Position numbers and translations under genes: made by a program
Shown here: positions 1 through 26,025 of the stretch, one piece after another
Layout of the letters: the number at the start of each line of letters is the position of its first letter
Position numbering within the stretch: position 1 is the first letter of the stretch
IMG/VR virus record: IMGVR_UViG_3300005573_000256
Span: 1 to 26,025 of that record
Length of the DNA: 26,025 nt
From: a virus
Lineage: Duplodnaviria > Caudoviricetes
Direction: 5' to 3' (one strand)
Notes under the pieces: model-generated
What the model saw: the letters and a program-made list of their open reading frames with translations, nothing else
Told to the model about the DNA's origin: nothing
Databases searched by the model: none

Positions 1-318
1 CAAAAAAAACCTCATTTTTGAGCGATTTTGACTCAACTTCAAAAAAAATATAAACTTAGAAAAGTTGCAAAATAAAACAAAAAAAACGCAAAATTTTGAA
101 ATCTAACATATTGAAAATATTGAGGTTATAACAATAAATGTTGCAAAATGCAACAAAATGGTGCGTTTTGCAACGGAAGTAAATCTTTAATTTTTATTGA
201 GTTACAAATATACATTTATCACTTATCATTTCCATCGCTAAGAATAAATTGATTGAGCAGATCAACGAAAGCTTCGAAAGAATAACACACATGAACATTG
301 AGTCTTTCGCTCCAGTCT
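1..318. repeat. Left terminal inverted repeat (1-121 identical to the reverse complement of 25905-26025; degenerate homology to 318)
   Basis: Manual alignment with the reverse complement of the right end; first mismatch at position 122. Confidence 0.97.
125..174 (-). promoter_or_regulatory. Outward-facing sigma70-like promoter overlapped by palindromic operator-like sites
   Basis: - strand TTGCAT (148-153)-N17-TATAAC (125-130) with a TG extension; palindromes GTTGCAAAATGCAAC 140-154 and GGTGCGTTTTGCAAC 160-174. Confidence 0.6.
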
Positions 319-647
319 AATTGCGCATTGGATAATTTCCCTTTTTTGCTTTTTAACTCCACAAATAATGCAGTATTGTAAGAATTATTATCTTTGCGAA
401 ATATAATAAGATCAGGTAAACCCTTAAAATATTCTGAAATTATTCTTTTGATTCCGATGGGAATTGGTGAATTATAAGAAGCTAATCGTGTAATTGTTTC
501 TGGTATCCGAATATATGGTACATCTAATCGTTTCAACAACTCTTCACATTGTTTTTGTAATTCATTCTCTTGTTGTACCGCTTCTGTTTTGCCTAATTCT
601 TTAATATTATATTTTCTTAATTGTATTTCTTTAGAATAACTTGGCAT
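219..647 (-). CDS. VRR-NUC domain (PD-(D/E)xK) nuclease
   Basis: Motifs GLPDL, FVELK and GKLSNAQ are typical of phage VRR-NUC proteins. Confidence 0.85.
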   Translation of the reverse strand: MPSYSKEIQLRKYNIKELGKTEAVQQENELQKQCEELLKRLDVPYIRIPETITRLASYNSPIPIGIKRIISEYFKGLPDLIIFRKDNNSYNTALFVELKSKKGKLSNAQLDWSERLNVHVCYSFEAFVDLLNQFILSDGNDK

Positions 648-7604: not shown

Positions 7605-7615
7605 ATCTCCTCCTA

Positions 7616-8680: not shown

Positions 8681-8693
8681 ATTTTATCCTCCT

Positions 8694-8885: not shown

Positions 8886-8901
8886 ATAACCTCCTTTAAT
8901 T

Positions 8902-10065
8902 TTAACTATAATTATCTTTTGTATTCAAATAATATTCATTTATTTCATTATCTGATAATGCTCTATTATATACTCTAATCTCCCCCATCAGACCATTATA
9001 ATATCTCCCCCCTTGCCATCCACATCCTATCATAGTATATGTTGTCCATGCCCTTACCGTCAAAGAATAAGTACTTGTTTTTTTTAGCTCTCCATTAAGA
9101 TAACCTTTGATATTTTTGGGCGATTTTGTTCTCACAACACCAATACATTGCCAAATATTAGTAACTACGCTATATAATGAAATCGATTCAGAACTTGTAC
9201 CATTACCATGCGAAAAAATAATATTTCCATTAGGATCATATGTCAAATCAAAATCATCTTTTTCACCTTTCGTAATTATCGTATCATATGAATCAACATT
9301 TGGTTTAATCCATGCTAATATTGTCAAATCTCCATCACTATTTAGCGTTGTATTGGGCGGTATATATACAGCTTCATTTATACCATTAAAACTTAATGCA
9401 TAATATTTACCTGCTTTTTGCCAATTTTTAAGACCAAATCCATGATTATTATTACCAGATATATCTAATATTATTTCATTTGTTAACCCAGTATATGAAA
9501 TCTCTGGCAAAATTCCGTTAGCCAATTCTATCCTCGTAATCGGTTGATTTGGCAAATATAATATAAGATTACTATCTGTATCAAATCTACTTATTAACGG
9601 CACAATCTGTTCCTTGATAATACGATATGCGACAGCCACCGAACCAATATAACCTTTTGCTTCCCAAGGCCCAGCAAAACGTAATCCATTAAAATCGCAT
9701 ATATCAACTTCCCCATTCAGATTATGTGTTTCGTTAATTACTTCAATTATTGCACGTTGATAACGCCATAATATTTTTTGTAATTTTTCTGGTGATGCAT
9801 CAAAGCAAATAACAGATATTAATATATTCACATCCATATAATATGTCTCATTCGTGTATCTGCTTCCATTGTCAGACTCGGGAAAAATCATAATCGCTGG
9901 AGTCTGCTGTATTACTTCCGTCTTGCCAATGTGTATTTCCCTTGCCATATCAAGCATAATGCCATCATTATGTTCTGCAGTAATTGCATTTAATTTATCT
10001 TTTAGATTCAATTCTAATATATTTTTTATCTTAACAATTACTGGCTCTATCCATCTTCCTGTCAT
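8902..10065 (-). CDS. Tail terminator-like N-terminal domain fused to a C-terminal LamG-like domain
   Basis: TPAIMIFP neck/terminator-like N-terminus; TILAWIK...YLNG...YNGLMGEIRVYNRALS LamG signature. Confidence 0.7.
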   Translation of the reverse strand: MTGRWIEPVIVKIKNILELNLKDKLNAITAEHNDGIMLDMAREIHIGKTEVIQQTPAIMIFPESDNGSRYTNETYYMDVNILISVICFDASPEKLQKILWRYQRAIIEVINETHNLNGEVDICDFNGLRFAGPWEAKGYIGSVAVAYRIIKEQIVPLISRFDTDSNLILYLPNQPITRIELANGILPEISYTGLTNEIILDISGNNNHGFGLKNWQKAGKYYALSFNGINEAVYIPPNTTLNSDGDLTILAWIKPNVDSYDTIITKGEKDDFDLTYDPNGNIIFSHGNGTSSESISLYSVVTNIWQCIGVVRTKSPKNIKGYLNGELKKTSTYSLTVRAWTTYTMIGCGWQGGRYYNGLMGEIRVYNRALSDNEINEYYLNTKDNYS

Positions 10066-10068
10066 ATT

Positions 10069-12009
10069 TCACTCCGTATATGATGATGAGTAATCATCTA
10101 CTATTGTAATTCTCCAATTCACAAAATTCATACCTGCAGGCTGTGCTATTGCTTCTGAGGCCCACCATGAGAGTTCCATTTGATTCCTCGAACTTTGTGT
10201 TTTTGCCAATTGTGTGGGCTCTGGGAATAAGCATGGAATTTCTATAAGTATTTTATAAGTTCCATTATAATCAAATAATAAGTCAGCTTTCTTTGGATTG
10301 CCGTCTTGATGTTTTTCGATTTTAGAAACATCAATATCAGCAAGTGTAACTTGTAATGTTGTTTCGGGCAATCCTTCTTCGATCGGCTCGTCAACTTCCC
10401 ACGCTCGATTTGATTCGCCTCTTGTTATATAATCTGGAGCGAATTTTCTTCGAAAACGAAAGCGAAAACCTTTGATTTTCCATATATCATTATCACTTAA
10501 TTCTGTGCCAGTATAATCATTCATTCGGAATCTTAATGCACCAAATGGTACAAATGGTGGCATATCAGATGCAAGTTGTATATGCGTCACCGATTGTATT
10601 TCGCTTTGCGTATTTTCCGCCGACATATTAAGATCAATCCTATCTGCTATTGCCCTGATAGCCACCGAAACAAATCCATCTCGATCAGGACCATATAATT
10701 CCACCTCAATCGGTTTGATCGAAGGCCATTCGAAGATTTGCGCCACACTCTTCGGATCAATACAAGCAATTAATGTACCATATAATCTTTGCCCATCAAT
10801 ACTATCTGCTAATGTTAACGTATGAGTATATGGTCCTGTCCCACTTACTTGATCTTGCCCCATTAATTGTGCGATGAGTGACCATAATCTGCTCGCATAT
10901 TTTAGCCGTGCCTCCAATATTGGCTCTACTCGCTTGCGACCATAGCAATAATATCTTGCCCATTTCCAACCAATACACGGATCGGGGAATACTTCCCGCA
11001 ATTGCATAATTGGACCTAATGATAACGTCTTAACTTCATCATTTACCCCAACAACTGATGCTTCCCCCCATGCTTTCATTTGCGCCACTGCTGGCCTATA
11101 TGCAATAATACAAGATTTTGTATTAACTTTTCCGAATGTAATCTGTTCACTTGGTTGTAATATTTGCAAATCCTGTTGTGGTACAACTTTTGCGACATAA
11201 GCCCAATCGGCCGAAAAAAGTGCCCCTGCACCGGTTGCATAGATACCAATTCGAAAATCTAATGTAGTTGATCTATTCCGATCAAATGAAGCTTCTTTTG
11301 TCCCATCAAAATATCCATCATCTCTATATACTCCATTGATAAGTCCTTTGCGATGTATCCATATTCTGTGCCAATTATAATCATATATATTACTCGCATG
11401 ATAATTCAATCCCCAATAAGCATCATTTGACCCCCTACCAGTACTGCGGTATGATATATAATAACTACTCATCTTTCCAAAAGATACATATTTGGTCTCG
11501 GAATATGCATTCATTGCATTAATACACATAGCACCTATATAATTAACGCCAAATGTTTGGAATGAGGCAAGAGTTGGATAAAGATAATCCCACTGTGCAT
11601 ATAATATTACTTTGCCATCTTGAACATATACATAATTTTGGTTACTACCTAATATTTGCCATTTAGTTAAATCTAATGTTGCAAAATCATCAAATAAGGG
11701 GAATGTATTAAGCCCATCAGAAGCATCAGATGCTGATGGATTGGAAAAATACATTTGGATTGTTTTTCCAGATGCAGGATATGTAGGAATTTTCAAAATA
11801 AACAATGCTGATGTATTTGCAATATAAGTCTCTTTCCAATGATATAATAAAGTTGTTCCATCTTCATCTGTAAAACGAATATCAGAAAAATCTGATTTCA
11901 TCAGTGGAGAATATGATACGGAAACATATACATTGATATTGGTCTGCTGTGAAGCAATTGCAGGCAGTGTAATTGTCTTCCGTGCGCCCCATCCTGCAAG
12001 CCAGCCCAT
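10069..12009 (-). CDS. DUF2341-like domain fused to a tail-tube paralog
   Basis: DFSDIRFTDEDG..LLYHWKE...FPLFDDF (DUF2341-like); the C-terminal ~350 aa align end to end with 7616..8680. Confidence 0.85.
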   Translation of the reverse strand: MGWLAGWGARKTITLPAIASQQTNINVYVSVSYSPLMKSDFSDIRFTDEDGTTLLYHWKETYIANTSALFILKIPTYPASGKTIQMYFSNPSASDASDGLNTFPLFDDFATLDLTKWQILGSNQNYVYVQDGKVILYAQWDYLYPTLASFQTFGVNYIGAMCINAMNAYSETKYVSFGKMSSYYISYRSTGRGSNDAYWGLNYHASNIYDYNWHRIWIHRKGLINGVYRDDGYFDGTKEASFDRNRSTTLDFRIGIYATGAGALFSADWAYVAKVVPQQDLQILQPSEQITFGKVNTKSCIIAYRPAVAQMKAWGEASVVGVNDEVKTLSLGPIMQLREVFPDPCIGWKWARYYCYGRKRVEPILEARLKYASRLWSLIAQLMGQDQVSGTGPYTHTLTLADSIDGQRLYGTLIACIDPKSVAQIFEWPSIKPIEVELYGPDRDGFVSVAIRAIADRIDLNMSAENTQSEIQSVTHIQLASDMPPFVPFGALRFRMNDYTGTELSDNDIWKIKGFRFRFRRKFAPDYITRGESNRAWEVDEPIEEGLPETTLQVTLADIDVSKIEKHQDGNPKKADLLFDYNGTYKILIEIPCLFPEPTQLAKTQSSRNQMELSWWASEAIAQPAGMNFVNWRITIVDDYSSSYTE

Positions 12010-12596
12010 TATCTCCTCCCAACATTACTATAATCCCCTCTATCAATCCATGCAGGCCGTTCAAGTCTCACACGGTCGAATGGTTTTTCATATTTTTCTA
12101 ATGAATCAACAAGCTGTCGTTGTATTATCTGCATCCATCTATGTATATCTTCACGCTTTGGATCGATTGTTCTTCTTGCCGGCACTTTTCTTTTTACATC
12201 ACCTCCCATCTGATGGTACAGAGGATAGTCGAATCCAGTGGGGGACGTCACTGTTGTCCCCCACTTGATATGCCATACATTACCTTGTCTATATACAGAT
12301 GCGATTGAATCTTTTGTCTGTTTTATTAATGATTCTTTTAACGCTCCTGTCAATACCATTATATTCGTTTTTCCATGTTTTTCTTTCCAAATTTTATAAT
12401 TTGGCGATAATTCTGCCCAGTGTCCATGATAACCACTCCCACCCTCGGTGGCAAATAATTTCTCGGCCGTCTCGTATGAGTCTTGTATTACTTGCCTACC
12501 AGCAATATCCATTGTAGCAAGCGATAATCGTCTTGCCACACGGTGCATATCCGATATCCATGTTTTAGTGTTTGGAAATGAAATTGCAATATACAT
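12009..12596 (-). CDS. Virion morphogenesis / tail completion protein (Mu gpG/P2 S-like)
   Basis: WAELSP, LTGALKES, YHQMG and VPAR motifs. Confidence 0.75.
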   Translation of the reverse strand: MYIAISFPNTKTWISDMHRVARRLSLATMDIAGRQVIQDSYETAEKLFATEGGSGYHGHWAELSPNYKIWKEKHGKTNIMVLTGALKESLIKQTKDSIASVYRQGNVWHIKWGTTVTSPTGFDYPLYHQMGGDVKRKVPARRTIDPKREDIHRWMQIIQRQLVDSLEKYEKPFDRVRLERPAWIDRGDYSNVGRR

Positions 12597-12600
12597 TACC

Positions 12601-13305
12601 TCAGAACTCCTTATCTATTGTTATCCATTCGTTAATATCATCTGGATTTTCCGAACCGTAACTTGATATACTTATCTTCTTAACTGATTTAGTTGTCCTT
12701 GTCGCTCCTTCAAGGTAATTTGCAATATTACGGATTGCCCATATTCCGCATGGCATATTTTCAGAGCCCCAATATTGCGCCCACAATTCTTTCGCTCTTT
12801 CAGGTTTGACTGGGGAAATCCCCATGAATGAAATTTGATCTACTTCTGCGGCTGCACCTTTCATGCATATATCTCTTAATATCTTTAATGCCGTATTTAC
12901 TTTTATAATTTTACAACCTATATCATAATCATTATCAACATTATCTAATGTTATTATATTATTGCTAATATTTTTAATTTTACAAAATTCATAAACTCGA
13001 ATACCGTTATCCAATCCCTCTAACTTGACAGTATCTCCAACTGAAAAACCAGAACTATCTCCGACATCCACATCAACATCTGAACCAGCAGTAATTGCTT
13101 GGGAAGCTGTTGTACTTACTTCATGCAGATTGTCCACATCATATCCAGCATCACTTACAATACTGCGCAATGATGCAGATATCCTGTCGATTATCTCTCG
13201 CACTTGGGAGCGGGTGGGTCTGGTATCGTCAGTATATACCATCCCACCCTGCGCTCCTTGTAACAATATGATCTCTACATCCTCAATTGTGCAATATGGA
13301 TACAT
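12601..13305 (-). CDS. Head-tail adaptor-like protein with a small inserted beta domain
   Basis: YCTIEDV start typical of adaptors; internal DSSGFSVGDTVKL segment; position after the capsid genes. Confidence 0.65.
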   Translation of the reverse strand: MYPYCTIEDVEIILLQGAQGGMVYTDDTRPTRSQVREIIDRISASLRSIVSDAGYDVDNLHEVSTTASQAITAGSDVDVDVGDSSGFSVGDTVKLEGLDNGIRVYEFCKIKNISNNIITLDNVDNDYDIGCKIIKVNTALKILRDICMKGAAAEVDQISFMGISPVKPERAKELWAQYWGSENMPCGIWAIRNIANYLEGATRTTKSVKKISISSYGSENPDDINEWITIDKEF

Positions 13306-13311
13306 CTTATA

Positions 13312-13740
13312 TTACCATGATGTTGTATCTGTTTTGCAGTAATATTTCGCTCCATCAATTATAATCTCCGCCCATCGGGGTACTCCAGAGGGAGTACAGA
13401 TCGTATCAACCGCTGTAATCGTATGTCCAGTATAAGTAATTCCTGTTCCATATAATATTACGGGCGAATCTCCATCACCAATATATAATGTTCCATTTCC
13501 ACCAGCCCTAATTGATAATCCAGCTGTCGTATCATTATCAGCACTTACTAATTTCACAACTCCAGCATCGTCACGGATAAGTTTGAAGACTCCATCTGTT
13601 ACACCAATCAATACATATTCTCCATTTTTCCCAACAATCTTCCCGGGCAATACATACAATGGCCTTCGCACAATTTGTATATTCTGTGCGAATAATATAC
13701 TACTTAATAGCACAAATAAAATAATTAATTTATTTCTCAT
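13312..13740 (-). CDS. Hypothetical protein with a Sec-type signal peptide
   Basis: MRNKLIILFVLLSSILFA/Q N-terminus; AGGAG RBS. Confidence 0.7.
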   Translation of the reverse strand: MRNKLIILFVLLSSILFAQNIQIVRRPLYVLPGKIVGKNGEYVLIGVTDGVFKLIRDDAGVVKLVSADNDTTAGLSIRAGGNGTLYIGDGDSPVILYGTGITYTGHTITAVDTICTPSGVPRWAEIIIDGAKYYCKTDTTSW

Positions 13741-13891
13741 CTTTATTCTCCTTCTTTTTTTGATCTTGTTCTAATCTTACAATCAATCCAGCTTGTTCTA
13801 ATTCTTCATTGACCGGCATATCGAAGATCATTCCAGCCAATACAATTTTTCCTTTTGCAAGTTTCAGATTTTTCAATGCTTTATACTTCAT
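13730..13891 (-). CDS. Small 53-aa protein (not in the ORF track)
   Basis: GGAGG RBS; MKYKALKNLKLAKGKIVLAG...; lies just after the major capsid gene. Confidence 0.65.
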   Translation of the reverse strand: MKYKALKNLKLAKGKIVLAGMIFDMPVNEELEQAGLIVRLEQDQKKKENKDEK

Positions 13892-13916
13892 ATGAGCCTC
13901 CATAAGTTATAAGCTA

Positions 13917-13956
13917 AATTAGGGCAGATATGCAATATTACATATCCGCCCTAATT
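13917..13956 (-). terminator. Stem-loop after the major capsid gene (terminator or mRNA stabiliser)
   Basis: Near-perfect 40-bp palindrome; both mismatches become G-U pairs in the - strand transcript. Confidence 0.7.
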
Positions 13957-13958
13957 AA

Positions 13959-14930
13959 TTATGAAACTACAGATGTGAGCAAATATCCACAGTTAGGATC
14001 AATGATTTGGATATCCTCATCAATTGTGCCCTCGACGAATGTCCCAGTTGCGGCCTCATCGTACCACTTGCGGATCTGCACAGCATCCGTGCCATATCGG
14101 GAGAAGATTGCTCCGAGTGTCCGACTTCGATTAGTCGGTGCCGGATCTCTGTACAATCCAATTACATTCTTGCCCCAGATATAACCCAGCGTCACACTTT
14201 GGCCCTCTTTGGTTGTTACATAAAGAGGATTCCCGATGAGCACTTCTTCCACGTCGAATGCGGCTGCCAACAATTCCGGAGTAATCTTACCTTCTTTCAC
14301 ATTCATCGTATATTTGATTCTGTCAACAACAAGTGGATGATGCTTTAATTTATTATATACTTGTCGACCAATAATAACAACATTCATCTCGCATCCAGTC
14401 TTGGCATGGATGCTATTGCGCATCGTCTCAACATCTTCAAATGGATCAGAGTCCTCACTTGTATAATTATCCCACTGATTAGCTGTTGTCAATGTGGTAT
14501 AATTAGTAAGTACAGATGTACTTGTAAGCAACGCAGCCGCCCTGTGCTCTCGACCAAGCAATAGTGCATCCGTCACGATCCGCACAGCATATTCTGTAAG
14601 ATCGAGTCCTTGCGACAAGAATTCATCTCTGTCTCGATCATCGATCCCATCATGCAGTGCGTATCTGGTACAATGGAATGTTCCATCAGTATCCATTTCG
14701 ACATTGACTTTGCTCGATTTGGCAAGTGGGCCTCTTGTATCATAACCATAATAATCCCGGAACATATTGCCTTTCTTAAATTTCCTGAATCGTCCAGAAA
14801 CTTTACCTTCCGTATTAATTACAGGTAAAGCTTTTGACGCAATATATGATCCCTCTCGATTCATGTATTCAATCGAGAGCTTGGTCAAATATTGATCAAC
14901 TTGTTGTAATTCATATCTTGAGAGAGACAT
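13959..14930 (-). CDS. Major capsid protein (HK97 fold, lambda gpE-like)
   Basis: 323 aa; follows protease and decoration genes; W...SDPFED and LKHHP motifs; strong RBS. Confidence 0.88.
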   Translation of the reverse strand: MSLSRYELQQVDQYLTKLSIEYMNREGSYIASKALPVINTEGKVSGRFRKFKKGNMFRDYYGYDTRGPLAKSSKVNVEMDTDGTFHCTRYALHDGIDDRDRDEFLSQGLDLTEYAVRIVTDALLLGREHRAAALLTSTSVLTNYTTLTTANQWDNYTSEDSDPFEDVETMRNSIHAKTGCEMNVVIIGRQVYNKLKHHPLVVDRIKYTMNVKEGKITPELLAAAFDVEEVLIGNPLYVTTKEGQSVTLGYIWGKNVIGLYRDPAPTNRSRTLGAIFSRYGTDAVQIRKWYDEAATGTFVEGTIDEDIQIIDPNCGYLLTSVVS

Positions 14931-14963
14931 ATTTAACCTCCTTTTATTATTTTATAATTTACA

Positions 14964-15359
14964 CTATGCTGTAGCAGTTGGAGCTAATATTAACCGTACG
15001 GAAATAATATCACCACTTACACCATCCTCAAGAGCAATGCCCACGACAAATTGACCGGCGCCTGTAGGAACAACTACAGTACCATTAGTATCTGCAATAA
15101 GTGTATCACCAGCGGAGATATTACCACCGGCTTTTACACGAGCAATACCACCAATCTGCAATGTCACATCTTTCTCGCTTGTGTCGGTTGCATACACTTT
15201 GTCAAGGATGACACCATCAACTTTACCGCCTTTTGATGCCGCACCAACTACAATTAAGCCACTTGACAATCTGCCAAGATAATATTTTTTAGCAGATAGA
15301 TCCGACTGAGTTCGAAACGTGGCCACAAAGTCCTTTATTTCTTTTGGAACTTGACTCAT
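14964..15359 (-). CDS. Capsid decoration/cement protein (DUF2190-like)
   Basis: GIARVKAGGNISAGD...VVGIALE...GDIISV. Confidence 0.8.
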   Translation of the reverse strand: MSQVPKEIKDFVATFRTQSDLSAKKYYLGRLSSGLIVVGAASKGGKVDGVILDKVYATDTSEKDVTLQIGGIARVKAGGNISAGDTLIADTNGTVVVPTGAGQFVVGIALEDGVSGDIISVRLILAPTATA

Positions 15360-15387
15360 AATTTATTACCTCCTATTTATTATTAAT

Positions 15388-16701
15388 TTATTCATAATTT
15401 TTGAATAGATCGGGATTTTCACTTTTCATCCGTCTTTTTGCTTCTATGAAACTAATATTCTTTTCCGCAGCATATTTCTCGATTAATTTCACGAGCTTTT
15501 CGGATGAATCAACTGCATCCCCATCTGTGCCCTTCTCACCGAGTTCAATTGGAAGCGGTGGAGTATTTTTCAAAAATTCTTCAAACCACTTCCGGTCAGA
15601 CAATGCCATCTGCACCATTTGTGCCTTTTGAGAGGGCAAGATTTTCCTCGCTTTGATCGCATCGTCTACAAGTGCTTCGGCTTCCATCAACGCAAGTTTC
15701 TTTTGCGCTTCAATCCCGGCCTCTGCACCCTTTTTCAATGCGTTCAATTCGTCCACTGTAATTTTCACTTCCCCATTCTTGGGAGTTAATTTTTCGATCT
15801 CTTCTTTCAATTTCTTGTTTTCCGTCTCAAGTTCTTCGAGACGTTTCACTTTTTCGCTCAATTCGTCCGTTAATTTTTTGAGCTCATCAGTGATTTCTTG
15901 CTTTTGATCTTGCATTTGCTTTTCCTCCTTTGTTTCGTTAATTTTAATATAATAATTTTCGTTTAGAGCTATTGCAACTTGACCCTTCTTCAGGAATGGC
16001 CAATTTGTCAAACCAAATCCACGCAGAGTGAATCCATGTTCTTGTCCTTGTTCGTCAATGAAGTTTTCTTCGAATACCGGAGAGATGAACTTAAATTCTT
16101 TATTTTTAATATATTCCTTTGCTTTATTTGTAAATTCAATTTTTGCATATAAACCGTCTTCTTTCAAAATGAGCTCCCGGATCCAACCGCTTGCTTTGGT
16201 CATTTCCGGATCAGAGATCCCAGACATTGGATGTTCATAAGTCCCGGGCAATACCCAACTTTCGGAATCTTTTACTGCGCCAATTCCAGCATTGAAATTT
16301 TTCACCGCATTTTCTAAATCTTTTTTCGTAACTCTGAATTTTCCATATGCTTTGTGGTGAAATTCGTCTGGATATAATATTTTAACTTCAACTAATTTAT
16401 TATCATTTTCCATTTCATTTAATCGTATATATACAGATGTTTCTCTTGTCTCTTTTTCTTCCGTCTCTCTCGCTGGCTCAAATTCACCGTTATGATCCTT
16501 ACAATGTTTTTCAGCTTGTTCTTTTGACCATATGTCCTTCGGATATCTATAAGCTTGTTCTACACTTCCACCCTCACCAGATTTTGGCAAGCCGAAGATA
16601 ATCCGATATTTCTTCCCCTCGTGTTCCCTCTCTTCTGACCCGACAATTTTCAGTTTGTCTGGGTCAACTAATCTACAAGCATGTTCATTAGGATATGGCA
16701 T
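15388..16701 (-). CDS. Mu-like prohead protease with a C-terminal scaffold
   Basis: YEH...ASGWI...GLYAKIEFT...FISPVF...GLTNWPF; coiled-coil C-terminus. Confidence 0.85.
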   Translation of the reverse strand: MPYPNEHACRLVDPDKLKIVGSEEREHEGKKYRIIFGLPKSGEGGSVEQAYRYPKDIWSKEQAEKHCKDHNGEFEPARETEEKETRETSVYIRLNEMENDNKLVEVKILYPDEFHHKAYGKFRVTKKDLENAVKNFNAGIGAVKDSESWVLPGTYEHPMSGISDPEMTKASGWIRELILKEDGLYAKIEFTNKAKEYIKNKEFKFISPVFEENFIDEQGQEHGFTLRGFGLTNWPFLKKGQVAIALNENYYIKINETKEEKQMQDQKQEITDELKKLTDELSEKVKRLEELETENKKLKEEIEKLTPKNGEVKITVDELNALKKGAEAGIEAQKKLALMEAEALVDDAIKARKILPSQKAQMVQMALSDRKWFEEFLKNTPPLPIELGEKGTDGDAVDSSEKLVKLIEKYAAEKNISFIEAKRRMKSENPDLFKNYE

Positions 16702-16723
16702 ATATTTCCTCCTTTGTTAATTA

Positions 16724-18838
16724 TTATTTTTCTTTTGATATTTCGAAAATATTAATTCCTCTACAATTATCTCCGCCATCACAATCAACATAAGGACCTG
16801 CGAGGAATGAATCTGCTTCCGGCGAATCAAGTGAAAATTCTAATCCATCCACTTGCTTACAAGGACCACATGTTTTTTCGTCCATAACTTCAGAACGTAT
16901 TACAATTTCAATTTGTTCCTTGTGTTTCATTGCTTCCGCATTTCTTGCGAGCCCGAATATTTTATTCGTAGCTTCGGCCATAGCATTTCGCACACTCTTT
17001 TCCGACAACCCGCTTAATCGATCTTGTAATCTCTGCGTATTTACCATATTAAGTAATTTCTGCGATAATATCTCATCTTCCCATTCATCCTCCAACAATC
17101 GTATCATTGCTTTGATTTTTGTCTCAATGATCCTTTTGATTGCTCTCTGGATTTCTCCTTCATCTTCTATGATCGGTTTTGGTGTGTCGGCCAATTTCAA
17201 TCCTTGCAATTTCAGTTCTCGCTGTAACTCTTCCTTCGAATATTTTGCCAATTCCATTGCAATTTGGGCAAGTTCTTCTTCAAGTTTTTTGGTAACAATA
17301 CTCATCCTTCTTATTTCCGCCATTATCGCATCGATCCCGCCTGTCTTTGCCAATATTCGCATTCCTCTATCAGTTAACAACTTAATAAATTCTGCACGAT
17401 GTTGTAATGCAATCTCTGCCATTTTATTCCGGAATTCACGAATTTTCTTATCAATATCTCTCAATCCGATTAGATTTTCTAAATCTGTCAATGGCCGCCA
17501 ATATTCGATTAGCTCTTCTGCTTTATTTTTTTCCGATAAGCATTTGCATATATTTTCTTTTGATTTTATTTCTTCTCTTTCTTCTTTTTTCTCTTCTTCC
17601 TCTTTTTGTGGCTGTTCCTCAATTTCTTTTTTTTGCACTTCCGGTAATTCAAGCCATTTGCGGATTATTTTTTCGTCTTCTTCATTCAATTTTAGTGCAC
17701 CGGAATTAACAAGTACATTTATGCTATTGGCTATTTCAGTTAAGTTAATATCTTCAATATAAGATCCACGTAATTTAGGGTATACATTATTTTCGGGCAT
17801 CCCGAAATTCCAATCGATTAATTCCTGAATGAGTTTTCTATTTTCATGGCCTGTATTAATTGTATTTTCGATTTCTTTCGTAATTGCTAATAATGACTGA
17901 AGAAATTGATCTTTCAGTGTTTTCCCAAGCGCCCTTGATCCTGTCTCAGTTTTCCCGAGATCGAGAAATTGTTGGAGTAAGGCGGTTGACATTTCTTGGT
18001 CAAAATATTTGATCGTGGATTCAAGATCAGATGTTTGAGAAGCTTTCATATCGAGAATCTCGAATTCGAAACCATGCGGTAATATTACATATCCCTTACT
18101 ATGGGCCCGGAAAGTTTCTCCGACTTCTACTGCTTTATCTTCGTCATTTTCAGTAACATTAATTTGTGGTAATTTAATAATCGGAATACCAAGCCCTTGT
18201 TTATCATGCTTTAATAGAGCAATCTTTATGAGAGTATCTTTAGCATAATAAGCTCTATATAATGGTCGTAATATTGATACGCCTCTCCAATTATTACCTT
18301 CTCGTTCATTTGTGAATATAAGTAATTTATTATTTGGTATACGAACTGTTTTATACGTTCCATCCGGAAAATATGCTAATTGTTCAATCTCTTTGAGCGA
18401 TCCGTCTGGGTTTTGATACCACCCGATAATTGTATTTGGCTTTCTTGGTGCAAGTTTTTTCAACCAATATTTCCCATCTCTATATTCATATACTTTTTCG
18501 AATATATAAAATCCATACTGTAGATATTTCAAAGCATGCGAAAGGAAGAAGTCCCAAGTAAAATTTGGATTTGCTAATATATTCTGCTCGATAAATTTTG
18601 CCTGCTCAACATGTTTGGGATCATCAGAGGCGGGCTCAATTGTCCATATTGCAGATCGTACGGCAAGGTTAATTGCATTTAGTACGCCCTTTATTTTCGC
18701 ATCTTTCAAGGGCATTTTGCAATATACTTCTATCGCTTTTGCATCCGCAAGATCAGTATTATATTCTTCATTTACAATTTGTCCGCTGTAGATTTCAGTA
18801 CCTACAGCACCAATTTCATTTAATCTTTCTTTTTCCAT
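16724..18838 (-). CDS. Portal protein (DUF935/Mu gp29-like) fused to a MuF-like minor head domain
   Basis: YGFYIFEKVY, GVSILRP, GSRALG; C-terminal DEKTCGPC...CDGGDNCRG. Confidence 0.85.
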   Translation of the reverse strand: MEKERLNEIGAVGTEIYSGQIVNEEYNTDLADAKAIEVYCKMPLKDAKIKGVLNAINLAVRSAIWTIEPASDDPKHVEQAKFIEQNILANPNFTWDFFLSHALKYLQYGFYIFEKVYEYRDGKYWLKKLAPRKPNTIIGWYQNPDGSLKEIEQLAYFPDGTYKTVRIPNNKLLIFTNEREGNNWRGVSILRPLYRAYYAKDTLIKIALLKHDKQGLGIPIIKLPQINVTENDEDKAVEVGETFRAHSKGYVILPHGFEFEILDMKASQTSDLESTIKYFDQEMSTALLQQFLDLGKTETGSRALGKTLKDQFLQSLLAITKEIENTINTGHENRKLIQELIDWNFGMPENNVYPKLRGSYIEDINLTEIANSINVLVNSGALKLNEEDEKIIRKWLELPEVQKKEIEEQPQKEEEEKKEEREEIKSKENICKCLSEKNKAEELIEYWRPLTDLENLIGLRDIDKKIREFRNKMAEIALQHRAEFIKLLTDRGMRILAKTGGIDAIMAEIRRMSIVTKKLEEELAQIAMELAKYSKEELQRELKLQGLKLADTPKPIIEDEGEIQRAIKRIIETKIKAMIRLLEDEWEDEILSQKLLNMVNTQRLQDRLSGLSEKSVRNAMAEATNKIFGLARNAEAMKHKEQIEIVIRSEVMDEKTCGPCKQVDGLEFSLDSPEADSFLAGPYVDCDGGDNCRGINIFEISKEK

Positions 18839-18846
18839 TTTGCCCC

Positions 18847-18875
18847 AATATAATAATTTATACTTTCGTTGTCAA
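18847..18875 (-). promoter_or_regulatory. Near-consensus sigma70 promoter directly before the portal gene
   Basis: TTGACA (18870-18875)-N17-TATATT (18847-18852); ATG only 8 nt after the -10 box. Confidence 0.7.
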
Positions 18876-18882
18876 GTACTTT

Positions 18883-20268
18883 TTAAAATTCTTTTTCCAA
18901 TAAATTAGCCGTAAATGGTTTGTACTTGACATCCTCTCTCTCTTCCTTGGAGTCTTTTTCCAATGAAAAAGTTCCCCTTGAAATTATATGCTCATCAATC
19001 CATGCAACGCCCCGCTGAAATGCTTCCAGCGCATGATTTTCTGCTTGCTCTATCTTTTTCCAAGTAATTGATTCAATTTGCCTTCTCAAATTTTTACAAC
19101 GTTCGAATATTTTAATTTTGTCAATTCGTAACAATCTATTACATATCTCCGCTCTTGTCTCAATGCCTATATTATAACCTTGCAGATTAAGCCCATATTG
19201 TCTGCGATACTCATCCGCAGGAGTGAGACCATCACGTTCCGACTGGAACGCTCTTGGGCAAGCAATAATTGCCTTTGGATAACTATATTCTTTGTATAAC
19301 TCTTGTATTCTTTTAGCATGATGTGATATTGTCATTCCTTCCTGATAATATTCGTCGAATATTACGATTTCCCCGGTCCGCCTTGAGTAAGCCATGAATA
19401 GCCATACTGTAGGATTGGCAATGCCATAATCCATAGCATCAATACGTATCCATTCCTCACCCTGTGGTAAAAAATAATTATTATGGGAGATTATATGTCT
19501 GTGCTCATTATATTCTGGATGGACTAATCCACCAATCCCAATTGGCAATGCCCACATATATTTCGCATTCCAGAACTTGGAATGCGTTGAAATCTGATCA
19601 TCATAATAACCGGGAGCGATATTGTGTTCATTAAGGAATGGAGGTGGCCAGAATCCTATCCAATTATTATTGATCCCACGATATATACCATAATCTCTTG
19701 TTACTGTTTCACCACCTCTTGTCCATGTGCCAGTATATCTTTCCATTGGTATCAAATAAAATTTTTCCCAATACCAATCTTTCGCTTCCGGATTCCCAAT
19801 CCAGACAGATTTCACTTCCTTGTCTTCCCGCCCATGCGAGAGTCTCGAAATTGCCATGTCGAATATTTCCGGATCAATCTCTTCTGCTTGATCCCCCATT
19901 ACATAAGATAACGTCACATTTTTCAACTTTTTTTTGTCATCCGGTCTATCTAAAGCAAAAAATATAATTCTACTATTATTATGAAATAATAAAATTTTTT
20001 GCGACTTATTAAATGCTTCACCGGTTAAATCCCAATCATGAATCTCCTTGAACTGATGAATTGTAGAAGTCCATAACTCACTATTAATATTGCGGATAAC
20101 GCCCGCTGTTGAACCCGGATACTTATGTAAATAACTTAATAAATCCATACAAGCCATGAATGTTTTACCGCTTCTGAATTCTGCAAAATACGCTCTATGT
20201 TTTGCAGGGCAAGTCAAAAATTTCCATTGCCATTCATTCCAATATATCTTTTTCGTTATCTTTTCCAT
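18883..20268 (-). CDS. terL: Terminase large subunit
   Basis: Walker A FRSGKT, Walker B YVMGDQ, GNP coupling motif, nuclease AMDYG..NPT and FDEYY. Confidence 0.92.
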   Translation of the reverse strand: MEKITKKIYWNEWQWKFLTCPAKHRAYFAEFRSGKTFMACMDLLSYLHKYPGSTAGVIRNINSELWTSTIHQFKEIHDWDLTGEAFNKSQKILLFHNNSRIIFFALDRPDDKKKLKNVTLSYVMGDQAEEIDPEIFDMAISRLSHGREDKEVKSVWIGNPEAKDWYWEKFYLIPMERYTGTWTRGGETVTRDYGIYRGINNNWIGFWPPPFLNEHNIAPGYYDDQISTHSKFWNAKYMWALPIGIGGLVHPEYNEHRHIISHNNYFLPQGEEWIRIDAMDYGIANPTVWLFMAYSRRTGEIVIFDEYYQEGMTISHHAKRIQELYKEYSYPKAIIACPRAFQSERDGLTPADEYRRQYGLNLQGYNIGIETRAEICNRLLRIDKIKIFERCKNLRRQIESITWKKIEQAENHALEAFQRGVAWIDEHIISRGTFSLEKDSKEEREDVKYKPFTANLLEKEF

Positions 20269-20716
20269 CTTCTATTGCATTATCATTTCCATTTTCTATT
20301 ATATTATTATTTTTATTTTGAAATAATGGAGTCATCTCATATACAATCATTGTTCCAGTTGAAATAAATGGTTTGATTTCTTTCAGTCCTTTTAGTTCTG
20401 CAATCTCTTTTTCAATTGCAAGTATGGTTCGTACCATTTCAGGTGTTATGCCTTTTTCTTGGCATTCCTTTTCGCACATCGATACTAATTTATGTAATCT
20501 GTTAAGTGTCTTCCCTAATTCTGTCTCACGGTCAATTTTCGCCTCTTCTGATATTATTCTATTGGCTTTTGTAATATAAGCTCTTACAGACCGTGGTGAT
20601 AAATGCGGATATCTGTCACGTGTCAATTGGATAATTTCTTTGTGAGTATGTCTATTGATTAACAATTGATATACATAATTTAGTATTTCCAATGCTTGTG
20701 CTCTTGTTGCCGTCAT
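20234..20716 (-). CDS. Probable terminase small subunit
   Basis: Helical, HTH-like N-terminus; overlaps the start of terL. Confidence 0.65.
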   Translation of the reverse strand: MTATRAQALEILNYVYQLLINRHTHKEIIQLTRDRYPHLSPRSVRAYITKANRIISEEAKIDRETELGKTLNRLHKLVSMCEKECQEKGITPEMVRTILAIEKEIAELKGLKEIKPFISTGTMIVYEMTPLFQNKNNNIIENGNDNAIEDGKDNEKDILE

Positions 20717-20838
20717 ATTTTATCATCCTTTGACATAATTTTTGATATATTTTTAGTTTCCCATAATTTCAATATTTATAACAATTTAATTATCAAAATA
20801 AGCTAAAATCAATAAAATCAATGAGTTAATATTATTTT

Positions 20839-21003
20839 TTAGACTAAATAATGCTTAATATAATTTATAAAATCCTCTATAGCAATCTCTGTCTCAAAAT
20901 ATCCCTTATAATCACATTCTTCACAGCCTGTTCCTTCACATTTTTCGCACCAACAATGTAATATTAACATTGATTTATCTAATTTGAGTTTTTCAAATGT
21001 CAT
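20839..21003 (-). CDS. Small 54-aa zinc-finger protein (not in the ORF track)
   Basis: MTFEKLKLDKSMLILHCWCEKCEGTGCEECDYKGYF...; CxxCxGxGCxxC motif. Confidence 0.65.
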   Translation of the reverse strand: MTFEKLKLDKSMLILHCWCEKCEGTGCEECDYKGYFETEIAIEDFINYIKHYLV

Positions 21004-21015
21004 ATTTTATCTTTT

Positions 21016-21447
21016 TTATACAAATTCAGTTTTATCAACGGCCTCATTGGGCGCCGGAATTTGGATGCCCAAAAAATCCAATGCCCATTGACGAATTCTA
21101 TCAATATATTCGGAAAATTCTTTTTTACTTAATCTTGTAGTTGATTCCGGAATGAGAGTTCCCATCACTTCAATTTTGTTCAAAAATTTTTCTTTGAAAA
21201 CCTCATGCAATTCTTCCGGGGTATGCTCTGTAACTTCTGAAATTATCTGTAATACAACTCCCCAATAATATCTATTTTGCGATAAACTTCGTCTTTTATG
21301 AATTGGTTTAATTATACATTCGACTAATTTTTTTTCTAAAGTTGATAAGTAAAATTTAAACAAATCGTTAAAATCTGGAAGTGGAACAAATTGTCCATTC
21401 TGAATTGTACCTCGAAAAATTGGATAAATTTTGCTCATTATAGCCAA
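21016..21447 (-). CDS. NinB/Orf-like protein
   Basis: RSLSQNRYYWG...LHEVFK...STTRLSKKEFSEYI motifs. Confidence 0.75.
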   Translation of the reverse strand: MAIMSKIYPIFRGTIQNGQFVPLPDFNDLFKFYLSTLEKKLVECIIKPIHKRRSLSQNRYYWGVVLQIISEVTEHTPEELHEVFKEKFLNKIEVMGTLIPESTTRLSKKEFSEYIDRIRQWALDFLGIQIPAPNEAVDKTEFV

Positions 21448-21827
21448 TATCTATTTGTTCTTTTTCTGTCTAATCTTTTATTTATTAATTTCTCAATTTT
21501 CTTTGTTATATACAATCCTAAAAAATTAAAACACAAATCTTTTGTGCTAAATCCATCCCCACCAATTATGCCATATTTCTCATATGGTAAAATTGCATCC
21601 TTTACTTCCCAACATATACTTGTAATTATGCAGATTTCGGTGGAGTTTTTTTCATTTATTCCTAATTCTCTAAAATACAAATATAATACCGAAGTTCCAA
21701 GCGCATGTTCGAGTTTATCATACTTTAGAATTAACCCATCTGTTGAATCCCATTTATCGTGCGACCAAAAATTCGCAAAACAAAAATTTACTAAAAAAAA
21801 TAATATAATGCAAGTAATTTTTTTCAT
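21438..21827 (-). CDS. YfiM/DUF2279-like membrane protein with signal peptide
   Basis: DKLEH...WEVKD...GDGFSTKD pattern. Confidence 0.6.
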   Translation of the reverse strand: MKKITCIILFFLVNFCFANFWSHDKWDSTDGLILKYDKLEHALGTSVLYLYFRELGINEKNSTEICIITSICWEVKDAILPYEKYGIIGGDGFSTKDLCFNFLGLYITKKIEKLINKRLDRKRTNRYWL

Positions 21828-21889
21828 AATTTTGCCAATTATACAATATCTTTAATTTGTAAATGAAATTACAACCTCTTTTGTTCCCA

Positions 21890-22729
21890 TTAAATAATAA
21901 CTTCTTCTAATAATACGGGCTCGCAATCTTGGATATGTAATCTCAAGTAACCTATTTCCCGTGGATCAAATCCGGCATATTCTGCATAACCAGAAATTCC
22001 AATACCATACAATCTCTCAAAACTGCCTGTGCACCCATACCATCGCAAATCTGGATGAATATATTCTGCGCTATAATCCACTTTTTGTAAATTTGTATAG
22101 TGCTGTTTTAATAAATTATCTTTTTCGGAAATATATAAAATTCTAACTGGTTTTACTGTCTTTAACAAATGAGCGTTAGCGCAAAGCATAACAGCACAAT
22201 CACCCATCTTATTTTTCAAACGCATCTTAAGTGATGCCTTGATATTGGCATCCATCTGTTCCGGATCTTTTGCGTTTGATCGAAATTGAAAAATCGAATG
22301 ATGTAAGAACATTTTAAAACATATTTTTTTGTTATAAGTAAATATTACAACTGCAGTAAAAGTACCATAAGATATACCGAGAGCATTGCAAATATATTGT
22401 GCGATATCACCATAACGATGGAGAGCTCGCTCGTGATTTCCTTGTAAACCAACTATGCCTTGTTTTGCGATTGGCGCAAACCATCTAATGGCTTCGTCTG
22501 CTTGTTCCATTGGTAATAATCTTTCGATTCCATGATAATATCTCTTATCATTTGTTTTTATTGCATTTATCCAATCCCCAAGATGCATCCACAATTCATT
22601 TTGATTTTTTATTCTTTCGATCGTTTCTCGCAACTTATCCTCCGCACATAATATACTACCAATATGTGTATCAGATAAGCAATTTATTATAATATCTTTT
22701 CTTGGTAATTCATATCTTATTATCTGCAT
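21890..22729 (-). CDS. Calcineurin-like metallophosphoesterase
   Basis: SDTHIG, HLGDW, GNHE and LHH motifs. Confidence 0.88.
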   Translation of the reverse strand: MQIIRYELPRKDIIINCLSDTHIGSILCAEDKLRETIERIKNQNELWMHLGDWINAIKTNDKRYYHGIERLLPMEQADEAIRWFAPIAKQGIVGLQGNHERALHRYGDIAQYICNALGISYGTFTAVVIFTYNKKICFKMFLHHSIFQFRSNAKDPEQMDANIKASLKMRLKNKMGDCAVMLCANAHLLKTVKPVRILYISEKDNLLKQHYTNLQKVDYSAEYIHPDLRWYGCTGSFERLYGIGISGYAEYAGFDPREIGYLRLHIQDCEPVLLEEVII

Positions 22730-22745
22730 ATCTCAATCTCCATTT

Positions 22746-23057
22746 TTAGTATCTAATATGTCGTATTTTTTCTTTTACACGGCACATTATACATATTGTT
22801 TTTTCATCCGGAATTAACGGACATCCGCACCAGAGACATTTATTTTCCTTTTTCCGCTTTGCAATAATTTTTGGTTTCCACCGTTTCGTTGTTTCTCTAT
22901 TTTTGGCCAAACAATCACTACAATATACATAACCCGGTTCTGCTTTTCGAGTACACCATATGCATAATCCTTGCTCTCTATGTCTCCTGCGCCATCTTTG
23001 TTTTTGAATGCGCCATTGCAATCTTACTTTGTTAACATCAACAATTTTATTATGCAT
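22746..23057 (-). CDS. Basic protein with four CxxC pairs (two zinc ribbons)
   Basis: CIWC/CSDC and CLWC/CIMC. Confidence 0.75.
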   Translation of the reverse strand: MHNKIVDVNKVRLQWRIQKQRWRRRHREQGLCIWCTRKAEPGYVYCSDCLAKNRETTKRWKPKIIAKRKKENKCLWCGCPLIPDEKTICIMCRVKEKIRHIRY

Positions 23058-23078
23058 TGTTTTTATTTTTTAACTTTA

Positions 23079-23433
23079 TTATTTCCAATATTTGCCAGCA
23101 ATAAAAATCCATTTACCAGTTTTATCAATTTCCAATAATTTTTCAAATCCTTTTTCATAATCGAATTGTTTCCAATATCTCCCTGCCCAATATATCCATT
23201 CCCCCGTCTTATCAATTTCAAGCAATCTTCTCAATCCATTTTTGTAATCAAATTGCTTCCAATTGCTCCCCGCCCAATATATCCATATGAGCGGATGCAG
23301 AAAAACAATTTCTGCAATTTTTACTCATTTCATCCATTTGATAAATTTGATTTATCTCAAAATAATATTTGTTTCCATTGCATTGTAAATAATATCCTTT
23401 TTTATCTTTCTGAAATGCTTTAATTGTTTTCAT
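23079..23433 (-). pseudogene. Frameshifted gene for a Trp-rich 29-aa repeat protein
   Basis: RBS-led ORF at 23433 overlaps a startless +1 frame encoding about 2.3 WIYWAG...LLEIDKTG repeats; stop at 23079. Confidence 0.7.
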
Positions 23434-23633
23434 GATTTGACTCCTCTATTTTTTCATAAAATTTTCAAGTTGTATCCCGGCACATATTAATGCACGCTCT
23501 ATATGATAACTCTTAGAAAAACTATAATCAATTGGCCAACCGTTAATAGGGGCTATTAAGATGGACTCGCATTACTCCTTTCCTTTTTCAATTAACATAT
23601 CAATATATTTAGAGCCAGCAATTCTATTTTTCA

Positions 23634-23963
23634 TTATTCCCTGTCACCAATATCATGTGCCCAATAATAGGCCCATCCCGACTCTGTTATTCGGTCCCGC
23701 ATGATATCCCTGTCACCAATATTCAGTGCCCAATAATAGGCCCATCTTGACTCCGTTATTCGGTCCCGCATTATTTCCCTGTCACCAATATCACGTGCCC
23801 AATAATAGGCCCATCGTTCTGGGGCATATGATGCAATTTTGTCAATTGTATCATTATCTTCAAAATTTTTTTCCAAAAACTCCAAAGCTTCCTTTACTTC
23901 CGGCTCGCAAAAATCATGATTGCCTGAGCGTAAAATTCTGACAACGTCTTTTTTGGTCTTCAT
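23634..23963 (-). CDS. Protein with 23-aa WAYYWA tandem repeats
   Basis: AAGGAGG before ATG 23963; about 2.6 copies of RWAYYWAxDIGDRxIMRDRITES. Confidence 0.8.
   Translation of the reverse strand: MKTKKDVVRILRSGNHDFCEPEVKEALEFLEKNFEDNDTIDKIASYAPERWAYYWARDIGDREIMRDRITESRWAYYWALNIGDRDIMRDRITESGWAYYWAHDIGDRE
23637..23818. repeat. 69-bp coding tandem repeat (about 2.6 units)
   Basis: CCCTGTCACCAATAT...TGCCCAATAATAGGCCCATC occurs three times. Confidence 0.9.
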
Positions 23964-24013
23964 AACTTCCTCCTTCTCCTTCTGCCCGCCTTGCACCACA
24001 TGGGGCGGATTAC

Positions 24014-24232
24014 TCAATAAGCCGTGGTCGCTCTTTTTATTTTCAAATCATTAACTCTATATACCCTCTTGCCATCTGTTGCATAACTCATAACATTATC
24101 CGCATTGTCGATTGTAGACCACATAATTGTCACCTTGACAACCTTATAGCCGGATTTCGTTTTGACGACAATGCCTTTAATGTCGCCACCTAATATATCC
24201 TTCATTTTTTCGATTGATTTATAGTACCCCAT
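24014..24232 (-). CDS. Small hypothetical protein
   Basis: GAGG RBS; first gene after the 24.3-24.6 kb control region. Confidence 0.65.
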   Translation of the reverse strand: MGYYKSIEKMKDILGGDIKGIVVKTKSGYKVVKVTIMWSTIDNADNVMSYATDGKRVYRVNDLKIKRATTAY

Positions 24233-24370
24233 GGCTACCTCTTTTTTGGGTTATCTGTTTCAACTTTTATTTGTTCGCAAATCTCATGCCATTTTTATTT
24301 TTTTTAAAATAATATATTGATTATTCTAAATTTATAGCATTCAGAAGGCCAGCATTTAAAATTTAAAAAT

Positions 24371-24538
24371 GTTGCATTTTGCAACACAAAAACATGCATC
24401 GTACAGCACAATTTGATTTAACTTAAAGATATACAAAAACTTATAAACGTTGCATTTTGCAATAAAATTTCGTTAAATTTCTGCCTTTAAGATACTGTTT
24501 TTGTTAAACTTAAATACATAAACGTTGCATTTTGCAAC
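24371..24538. promoter_or_regulatory. Three GTTGCA-TTT-TGCAA(C/T) palindromes
   Basis: At 24371-24385, 24449-24463 and 24524-24538 (spacing 78 and 75 bp). Confidence 0.75.
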
Positions 24539-24652
24539 AAAATGATGCGTTTTTCAACAGAAGTAAAACTTTGATTTTTATTGATTTAACGGTATACATT
24601 TATGACTTAAGATTTGTACTCCATGCGAAATACGATAAGATCAAGAAATCCA
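24521..24652. repeat. Degenerate direct copy of left-end 137-225 plus collapsed VRR-NUC gene fragments
   Basis: Ungapped similarity over about 89 bp; TGCGAAATACGATAAGATCA matches TGCGAAATATAATAAGATCA near 395-414. Confidence 0.8.
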
Positions 24653-24671
24653 GGGCCAAGCTTGTACCTTA

Positions 24672-25109
24672 TTATATTTTTTCAATTTTTTTTTGATCAT
24701 ACGGGAGTCTATAGCTTAAAATTTTTGAAATAGGATATTTCGAAATTGAAACTCTATTATGTTGGTTTCCACCTAAAAGCCATATATAATAATCACTCTT
24801 TTTTATAAAAAATCCCACATGCCCGTTTGTTTCCCCATGTTTTAGTACCACAATACACCCACGTACCGGCTCTTTGATTTCACGCCCCCAATTTAACCAC
24901 GACAAAGCCCAAGCATTGTTTGTTCCTTCAATCCCTACTTGTTTCAACACCCAATTGACAAAAGCACTTCCCCAAGGTACTACATCGTTCAAAGCATCCC
25001 TTTGCCCGAAACTTGTTGTCTTTAAGTATTCTACCACTTTGGGATTTTGGCTTTCTCCAGGCAATTCTTTTACACCCAATTCTCTCAATGCAATATCAAT
25101 CCAATTCAT
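24672..25109 (-). CDS. TIGR02594-family paralog with the catalytic Cys replaced by Gly
   Basis: Aligns along its length with 650..1102; PWGSAF versus PWCSAF. Confidence 0.88.
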   Translation of the reverse strand: MNWIDIALRELGVKELPGESQNPKVVEYLKTTSFGQRDALNDVVPWGSAFVNWVLKQVGIEGTNNAWALSWLNWGREIKEPVRGCIVVLKHGETNGHVGFFIKKSDYYIWLLGGNQHNRVSISKYPISKILSYRLPYDQKKIEKI

Positions 25110-25132
25110 ATTTTACCTCTTTTGTTTTTGAC

Positions 25133-25161
25133 AATTTAATTTACCAAAATCATTTTGTCAA
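25133..25161 (-). promoter_or_regulatory. Sigma70-like promoter for the lysin paralog
   Basis: TTGACA (25156-25161)-N17-TAAATT (25133-25138), then a GAGG RBS. Confidence 0.7.
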
Positions 25162-25418
25162 TAATAAAAATCATAAACTGTATACAAAGCAATAATAGAA
25201 CCAATAAAACCAATGTATAAAAATAAAAACAATATTCAGAACAATATCCAGAACTTCATTCTGAACTCTTTTATAAAAACAAAACAATACAATAATGTAA
25301 ACGTAAAAATGCGAATGAACGTAATAATACGAATAAATGCAATATGAGTAACGATATAAATAAATGCAATCATGAGTAAATTCAATAATAAGAGTCATAA
25401 TGTGAGTTAATTTAATGG

Positions 25419-25543
25419 AGTGAGTAAATTCAAACATATAAGTAATGTGTGAGTACATTTGATAATCTGAATAATTAAGTGGGTAAATTCAAACATATAA
25501 GTAATGTGTGAGTACATTTGATAATCTGAATAATGAAGTGAGT
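25419..25543. repeat. 59-bp tandem duplication within a periodic TGAGT array
   Basis: Units 25419-25477 and 25478-25536 differ at 2 positions. Confidence 0.92.
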
Positions 25544-25630
25544 TATTAATAATATGAGTAAAAAAGTGATGTAAAATTGGGATTGAAATGAGTGTAAAAG
25601 ACGCAGTACGTTTCGTGCGAAGTGGGACTC

Positions 25631-25697
25631 CACGCGCACGCACGCGCACGCACGCGCACGCACGCGCACGCGCACGCGCACGCACGCGCACGCACGC
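25631..25697. repeat. 67-bp alternating (C-purine)n tract of CACG/CG units
   Basis: Every odd position is C and every even position is A or G. Confidence 0.95.
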
Positions 25698-25720
25698 CCT
25701 ATAGGTGAAACATTTGGAAT

Positions 25721-25752
25721 GTCGCGCCCCGTGCGAGCTCGTGGATTGAAAC
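25721..25752 (+). CRISPR. Solitary type I-C-like CRISPR repeat (no array, no cas genes)
   Basis: GTCGCGCCCCGTGCGAGCTCGTGGATTGAAAC, 32 bp, with the GTCGC start and GTGGATTGAAAC end of I-C repeats. Confidence 0.85.
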
Positions 25753-26025
25753 AGACTGGAGCAAAAACTTAATGTCCATTTGCTTAATCAATGGAAATGA
25801 TAAGTAATAAATGTATATTTGTAACTCAATGAAAATCAAAGATTTATCTCGGTTGCAAAATGCACCAATTCGTTGCATTTTGCAATATTTGTTGTTATAA
25901 CCCAAATATTTTCAATATGTTAGATTTCAAAATTTTGCGTTTTTTTTGTTTTATTTTGCAACTTTTCTAAGTTTATATTTTTTTTGAAGTTGAGTCAAAA
26001 TCGCTCAAAAATGAGGTTTTTTTTG
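25753..26025. repeat. Right terminal inverted repeat including a deleted remnant of the VRR-NUC 3' end
   Basis: Reverse complement of 1-318 with gaps of about 1, 30 and 14 nt. Confidence 0.92.
25852..25901 (+). promoter_or_regulatory. Outward-facing promoter with palindromes (mirror of the left end)
   Basis: TTGCAT (25873-25878)-N17-TATAAC (25896-25901); palindromes at 25852-25866 and 25872-25886. Confidence 0.6.

Follow-up and report, generated by a model that had tools for sequence, protein, structure and literature searches.

A solitary type I-C CRISPR repeat in a tailed-phage contig abuts a relic of a VRR-NUC nuclease gene

What is a single CRISPR repeat doing in a phage genome, and how did it get there? 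The window, that is, the whole stretch of DNA analysed, is one 26,025-bp virus record (G000) of a tailed phage, with completeness put at 60%. An earlier note had described a 32-bp I-C-like repeat with an intact 3′ end and two stem mismatches, and had offered three readings: a candidate RNA anti-CRISPR (Racr), a mini-array, or an attachment site. The description held. The 32-mer at 25721..25752 (plus strand) agrees with array repeats at 30 of 32 positions, positions 20–32 being identical, so that the cut-site bases 20–24 and the 11-nt handle are unchanged. Under a uniform base model, such a match has an expected chance count of ~1e-11 in 52,050 positions, and the next-best site in the window reaches 20/32. 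Also borne out was the claim that the window holds no second repeat and no cas gene. At spacer-like distances of 8–45 nt, the array repeat matches at most 10/32 positions downstream and 14/32 upstream, and Pfam and PHROGs scans of 35 of the 106 listed ORFs (the minus-strand gene run plus the end-region frames) recovered no cas, integrase or replication family. An Rfam scan returned 0 matches. The lack of a second repeat at spacer distance makes the mini-array reading improbable.

The repeat is a common one. When any base is allowed at positions 16 and 19, 72 matching loci turn up in GTDB genomes, and the majority are arrays with several copies. These genomes are spread over many phyla, and the repeat therefore does not name the host. 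Because G occupies both positions in 1159 of 1160 array copies (a count in which overlapping loci enter some copies twice), the phage copy can be described as carrying G16A and G19T, both within the 3′ arm of the 7-bp stem. The Cas5d profile TIGR01876 was found in all five repeat-bearing genomes picked from 49, above the cut-off in four, which confirms subtype I-C as previously proposed. The two substitutions are mutually complementary and turn repeat positions 14–21 (25734–25741) into a perfect 8-bp DNA palindrome; both could have arisen as one decay event if a first change was then copied across by template-switch correction.

The element is an already known viral solitary repeat unit (SRU) and a published Racr candidate. 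The same sequence and coordinates appear in row 927 of supplementary file 3 of PMC10651486, listed as I-C at 93.8% with 2 mismatches; across the nine supplementary files the element occurs in this row only, and the available parts of that publication hold no test of it. Our own data agree with the listing. SRUFinder demands at least 90% full-length identity to a known repeat, here 30/32, and the element is intergenic, lacks cas genes and has neither a complete nor an incomplete further repeat in the 100 bp around it. The repeat itself is thus catalogued; what is new here is its right flank, a junction with a relic of a VRR-NUC gene.

The phage is represented by a minus-strand morphogenesis operon in which Pfam and PHROGs scans recognised a terminase, a Mu-like portal and protease, a major capsid protein, tail genes, a CHAP hydrolase and a VRR-NUC nuclease. 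As a complete relative (G002) measures 43.6 kb, ~15–17 kb, or about 40%, of the genome is probably missing from this record. A second assembly, L153, differs from the window by one substitution and a 59-nt indel over 2440 aligned bases and carries the identical repeat and flanks, which rules out a one-off misassembly. The indel corresponds to a 59-nt tandem duplication at 25413–25530, present in two copies in the window and one in L153, amid a run of 26-nt repeats; this stretch is possibly iteron-like.

The DNA directly 3′ of the repeat, whose nature the earlier note had missed, is a gene relic, and it points to a recombination origin. An intact resident VRR-NUC gene lies at 219..647 (minus strand; Pfam and PHROGs), and the relic, at 25753..25807 (plus strand), corresponds to the last 100 nt of such a gene, of which three deletions (1, 30 and 14 nt) have left 55 nt. 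Homology begins at the first base after the repeat and aligns to the resident gene from position 318 downwards. Next to the repeat, 26 of 31 alignment columns are identical, the first ten without exception, and the 34 nt 3′ of the repeat score 20 against the gene, compared with a maximum of 17 in 300 shuffles. Past the three deletions, the relic runs in order through the stop codon into a non-coding module described below. The repeat, by comparison, matches the 32 gene bases ahead of the junction point at only 6/32 positions.

Two properties of the relic bear on its source. Of the six substitutions among 51 aligned coding bases, five are synonymous (P = 0.018 against random transitions, 0.001 against random changes), from which the donor was likely a working, diverged allele of a related phage, the transferred piece having lost bases afterwards. 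In addition, homology extends over 100 gene bases plus the module, far exceeding the 33–35 nt typical of spacers in the matching arrays; hence this DNA is no spacer standing by itself. Scanning IMG/VR with a pattern for an intact donor allele gave 0 matches, and the nearest VRR-NUC homologues of the donor search are 35–42% identical.

The module into which the relic runs is about 350 nt long and, as judged by alignment, occurs in three copies. The right copy (25791..26025, plus strand) is non-coding and continues for at least 140 nt past the contig end in L153. The left copy (1..235, minus strand) lies downstream of the intact VRR-NUC gene; the two are identical over their outer 121 nt and differ at 13 positions in the inner 114 nt. 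The more diverged middle copy (24263..24615, minus strand) aligns to L153 19–371 at 66% over 357 columns, and its identity as a third copy follows from the 140-nt L153 extension, which aligns to 24263–24380. Since the middle copy lies directly ahead of the gene that opens the minus-strand run and holds three TTGCA-N3-TGCAA palindromes, the module is likely a promoter/operator region. In all, five perfect palindromes of this form (at 141, 24372, 24450, 24525 and 25873) are confined to the three module copies and were absent from the relatives scanned; they are candidate operators or terminator hairpins.

The record is classed with inverted terminal repeats, and we considered whether the 235-nt inverted repeats (1–235 and 25791–26025) are true genome ends. 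This was rejected, as L153 runs 140 nt longer, into DNA homologous to the internal module, and completeness is 60%; more likely, the assembly broke off at both ends because the module is repeated. Near the middle module, a CHAP-domain gene (24672..25109, minus strand) is a diverged duplicate of 650–1102 at 69% DNA identity, and another short VRR-NUC relic follows it near 24608–24651. On this sequence comparison, a cassette of CHAP gene, VRR-NUC gene and module was duplicated and eroded more than once in the end region.

Upstream of the repeat, the picture is less clear. A GC-rich simple-repeat tract (25631..25697) ends 23 nt before it, and the end of this tract (minus strand, near 25629–25644) holds the sole notable partial match to the repeat, at 15 of 16 bases to positions 10–25 in the opposite orientation (reached in 1 of 500 shuffles). 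The match is mostly low-complexity, yet the tract could have grown by slippage from what was left of a repeat. Further upstream, at 25580, a degenerate repeat end was not significant (184 of 500 shuffles). Scans with the upstream flank gave 0 matches in IMG/VR and only E=0.2 matches in GenBank phages. The 5′ flank (tract plus 23 bases) is thus assignable neither to host nor to phage, which leaves a second crossover unexplained.

A repeat fused to protospacer-like DNA and to that DNA's natural flank is the expected product of a crossover within a spacer. We therefore read the repeat, with about even confidence, as the scar of a host I-C repeat-spacer unit that recombined with spacer-matched phage DNA and is now probably decaying. 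A host array would have held a spacer derived from a related phage's VRR-NUC gene. A crossover inside that spacer would have placed the repeat at the former PAM position and so hidden the site from Cascade. The piece would then have landed, inverted, in the rearrangement-prone end region of a phage that kept an intact VRR-NUC gene elsewhere. Later, the relic would have lost 45 nt and the repeat gained its two stem-breaking substitutions, either through drift or through selection against a guide that targets a gene of the phage itself. In agreement with such a product, phage homology starts precisely where the repeat ends and extends on into flanking phage DNA. By a rough, post hoc estimate, a junction within 0–1 nt would arise from a random fragment end in the next spacer about 1–2 times in 34; the first matching base (A) after the repeat may itself be chance.

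Recombination between spacers in arrays and their phage targets has been reported for staphylococcal phages (Varble et al. 2019, as cited in the available text of PMC8616872), where the product likewise joins a repeat to the protospacer and downstream phage DNA. As presented in those passages, however, the process is a way for CRISPR loci to be transduced from one host to another rather than a source of a fixed repeat in a natural phage. The present locus also differs in that its PAM does not fit and the searches found no donor spacer. The resident VRR-NUC allele reads ATT at the PAM position, not TTC or TTT, while I-C acquisition uses TTC and sometimes TTT (PMC5602111, in the portion available). 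The Gln codon supplying position −3 is kept in all five VRR-NUC homologues compared by eye, so TTC exactly there is unlikely in any allele, and a PAM fit would call for a rare event, a one-base slip from TTA. No spacer matching the site or the phage was found among 1054 array spacers, whose best matches to the phage span 15 nt. The only second copy of the locus, in L153, differs by just 1 substitution in 2440 bases, too little to reveal selection in either direction; from the sequence, the repeat is probably decaying rather than working. Judged by title and abstract, and with most subscription journals outside the scope of the search, we found no paper describing a recombination origin of SRUs, nor do the available passages of Watson et al. 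2018 (PMC5821089) contain anything on spacer-target recombination.

Is the repeat instead, or as well, an active RNA decoy? A recombination origin and Racr function can coexist, but we consider it unlikely that this is a working Racr of the RacrIC1 kind, transcribed from the AT-rich upstream region, bound or cut by Cas5c, and soaking up I-C Cascade subunits. Like RacrIC1 and other viral SRUs (PMC10651486; Camara-Wilpert et al. 2023), the element is a single intergenic phage repeat without cas genes, and it passes the published SRUFinder screen. Both substitutions spare bases 20–24 and the handle, on which Cas5c recognition centres (PMC3973291 and PMC8524198, as far as their available text goes), and the identity to array repeats includes the cut after G21. 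The hairpin tells against activity. At 37 °C, the canonical stem has a predicted pair probability of ~0 in the phage repeat versus 0.66–0.72 in the array repeat, with predicted folding energies of −1.6 and −14.3 kcal/mol, and a weaker alternative hairpin is predicted in its place. By prediction alone, then, this element lacks the canonical hairpin, whereas according to the accessible sections of PMC10651486 a structure resembling the repeat was a basis for choosing the Racrs that were tested, and mutating a stem base abolished RacrIF1. Loss of the stem does not have to make the element inactive, though, because Cas5c gives some cleavage of a repeat without its first 7 nt (PMC8524198, same portion); processing of the phage repeat may be reduced rather than lost.

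Expression is similarly two-sided. A relaxed scan finds weak plus-strand promoter-like sites within ~250 nt (one scores 8/12 and ends at 25577; another, with a 19-nt spacer, scores 9/12 and ends at 25489), and a hairpin followed by a T-rich run near 25852–25895 could end a transcript, but the standard promoter scan is empty on the plus strand from 24793 to the repeat and even the relaxed scan is empty over the last 143 nt. In the part of PMC10651486 available, RacrIC1 lies 11 nt after acrIC5; here, no acr-like gene was recognised nearby within the contig, genes beyond the contig end lying outside view, and the 3′ flank is a gene relic. The repeat is also missing from all ten related virus records, at up to 3 mismatches (best ungapped match 21/32). 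These records, found via capsid and terminase (capsid identity 45–71% for the nearest), offer no sign of the conservation that the earlier note had looked to, but most are incomplete, they have little of the end region in common with the window, and they are too distant to judge it. The proposal of an RNA anti-CRISPR thus stands as a published candidate (PMC10651486), while current inhibition is doubtful given the predicted loss of the hairpin and the lack of a strong promoter close upstream. Equally doubtful is the earlier inference that a host I-C system is now being inhibited, hijacked or integrated into, as the searches brought up no second repeat, no integrase in the contig or four relatives, and no host array whose spacers match.

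The remaining explanations are less probable still. One is that illegitimate recombination with host DNA, or a mini-array losing its second repeat, brought the repeat in, and that its contact with the VRR-NUC relic is a deletion coincidence in a rearrangement hot spot. The region is indeed full of duplications and deletions, the PAM test fails, and the middle module copy also has a VRR-NUC relic, one with no adjoining repeat (family D13). A 0–1 nt junction that leaves the full 32-mer intact is nevertheless unlikely by chance, and no host-like spacer remnant separates repeat from relic; we regard coincidence as a rather improbable account. We find it more improbable that the repeat and its neighbouring DNA form a guide that borrows host Cascade, with the handle and the next 34 nt targeting the VRR-NUC alleles of competing phages, as in a mini-array, or silencing a promoter, as Cracr/CreR-like RNAs do. 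The parallels are real: viral mini-arrays (PMC11656645; 10.1101/2023.03.03.530964; both as far as available) also place a host-type repeat before related-virus-like DNA, and their spacers mostly target related viruses (PMC11656645), the downstream DNA here resembles a related phage's allele, and Cracr/CreR-like RNAs combine a repeat-like handle with a short seed, I-C Cracrs being among the examples reported (10.1101/2024.10.29.618823, available portion). The details, however, do not suit a guide. A mini-array has two repeats and this element has one, while the spacer-like DNA is frameshifted and runs in order into the phage flank. A 1-nt deletion breaks register after base 10, leaving 17/34 ungapped matches to the resident gene beside an ATT PAM. 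The match falls in a coding region rather than a cas promoter, the 9-nt seed stands beside TTC at none of the loci examined, and what would serve as the seed is already explained as a gene relic.

Least probable, and to our minds very unlikely, is that the repeat is an attachment site through which the phage enters the CRISPR repeats of its host, as described for phiAP1.1 (10.1101/2020.10.09.333658, in the text available). There, too, phage DNA shares sequence with a repeat, and integration into a type II-A array has been shown; about 40% of the present genome is missing, which leaves room for an integrase. Yet the phiAP1.1 case is type II-A, uses an 8-bp core and is integrase-driven, whereas neither a tyrosine integrase (PF00589) nor a large serine recombinase (PF07508) was detected in any of five records (the contig and four relatives, two of them at least 90% complete), with profile controls matching in 14/14 and 2/14 genomes. 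The same study found no prophage in I-C loci of the species surveyed, and integration would leave the gene-relic junction unexplained.

Searches for hosts and closer phages returned little within their scope. The exact 32-mer, its last 18 nt and the terminal module gave 0 matches each in IMG/VR scans, and the repeat has no match in GenBank phages. When window positions 6026–25720, which exclude the VRR-NUC gene, were compared with 49 of the repeat-bearing genomes, one weak match appeared (E=0.004), and no capsid match was present in 301 genomes of one class.

Returning to the scar reading, we offer a broader version of it tentatively, with confidence well short of even. Phage SRUs, catalogued Racr candidates included, may arise through recombination of a host repeat-spacer unit into the very phage site that it targets, an event that would erase the PAM, create an SRU and potentially drive rearrangement of the genome. 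Here it would have left an inverted duplication of the promoter module, making the locus a natural snapshot of the process in which a handle-intact, stem-broken RNA may still act as a I-C decoy. The junction would then be a sequence signature of how viral solitary repeats arise, one that can be counted across the published SRU list, and among the catalogued Racr candidates there may be some that do not inhibit anything but are scars in decay.

Several other features of the window deserve mention. The 72-aa gene at 24014–24232 has no usable atlas match. Directly downstream of the major capsid gene, a 40-nt near-palindrome (13917–13956) probably forms a hairpin for termination or processing. Small unknown genes contain tandem coding repeats of 87 nt (23078–23251) and 69 nt (23638–23844); over the 87-nt repeats L153 diverges sharply from the window (79%), which suggests a variable locus. 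Lastly, the IVYWREL fraction over the 32 predicted proteins of the whole window is 0.423, a rough hint of a moderately thermophilic host living at ~60 °C.
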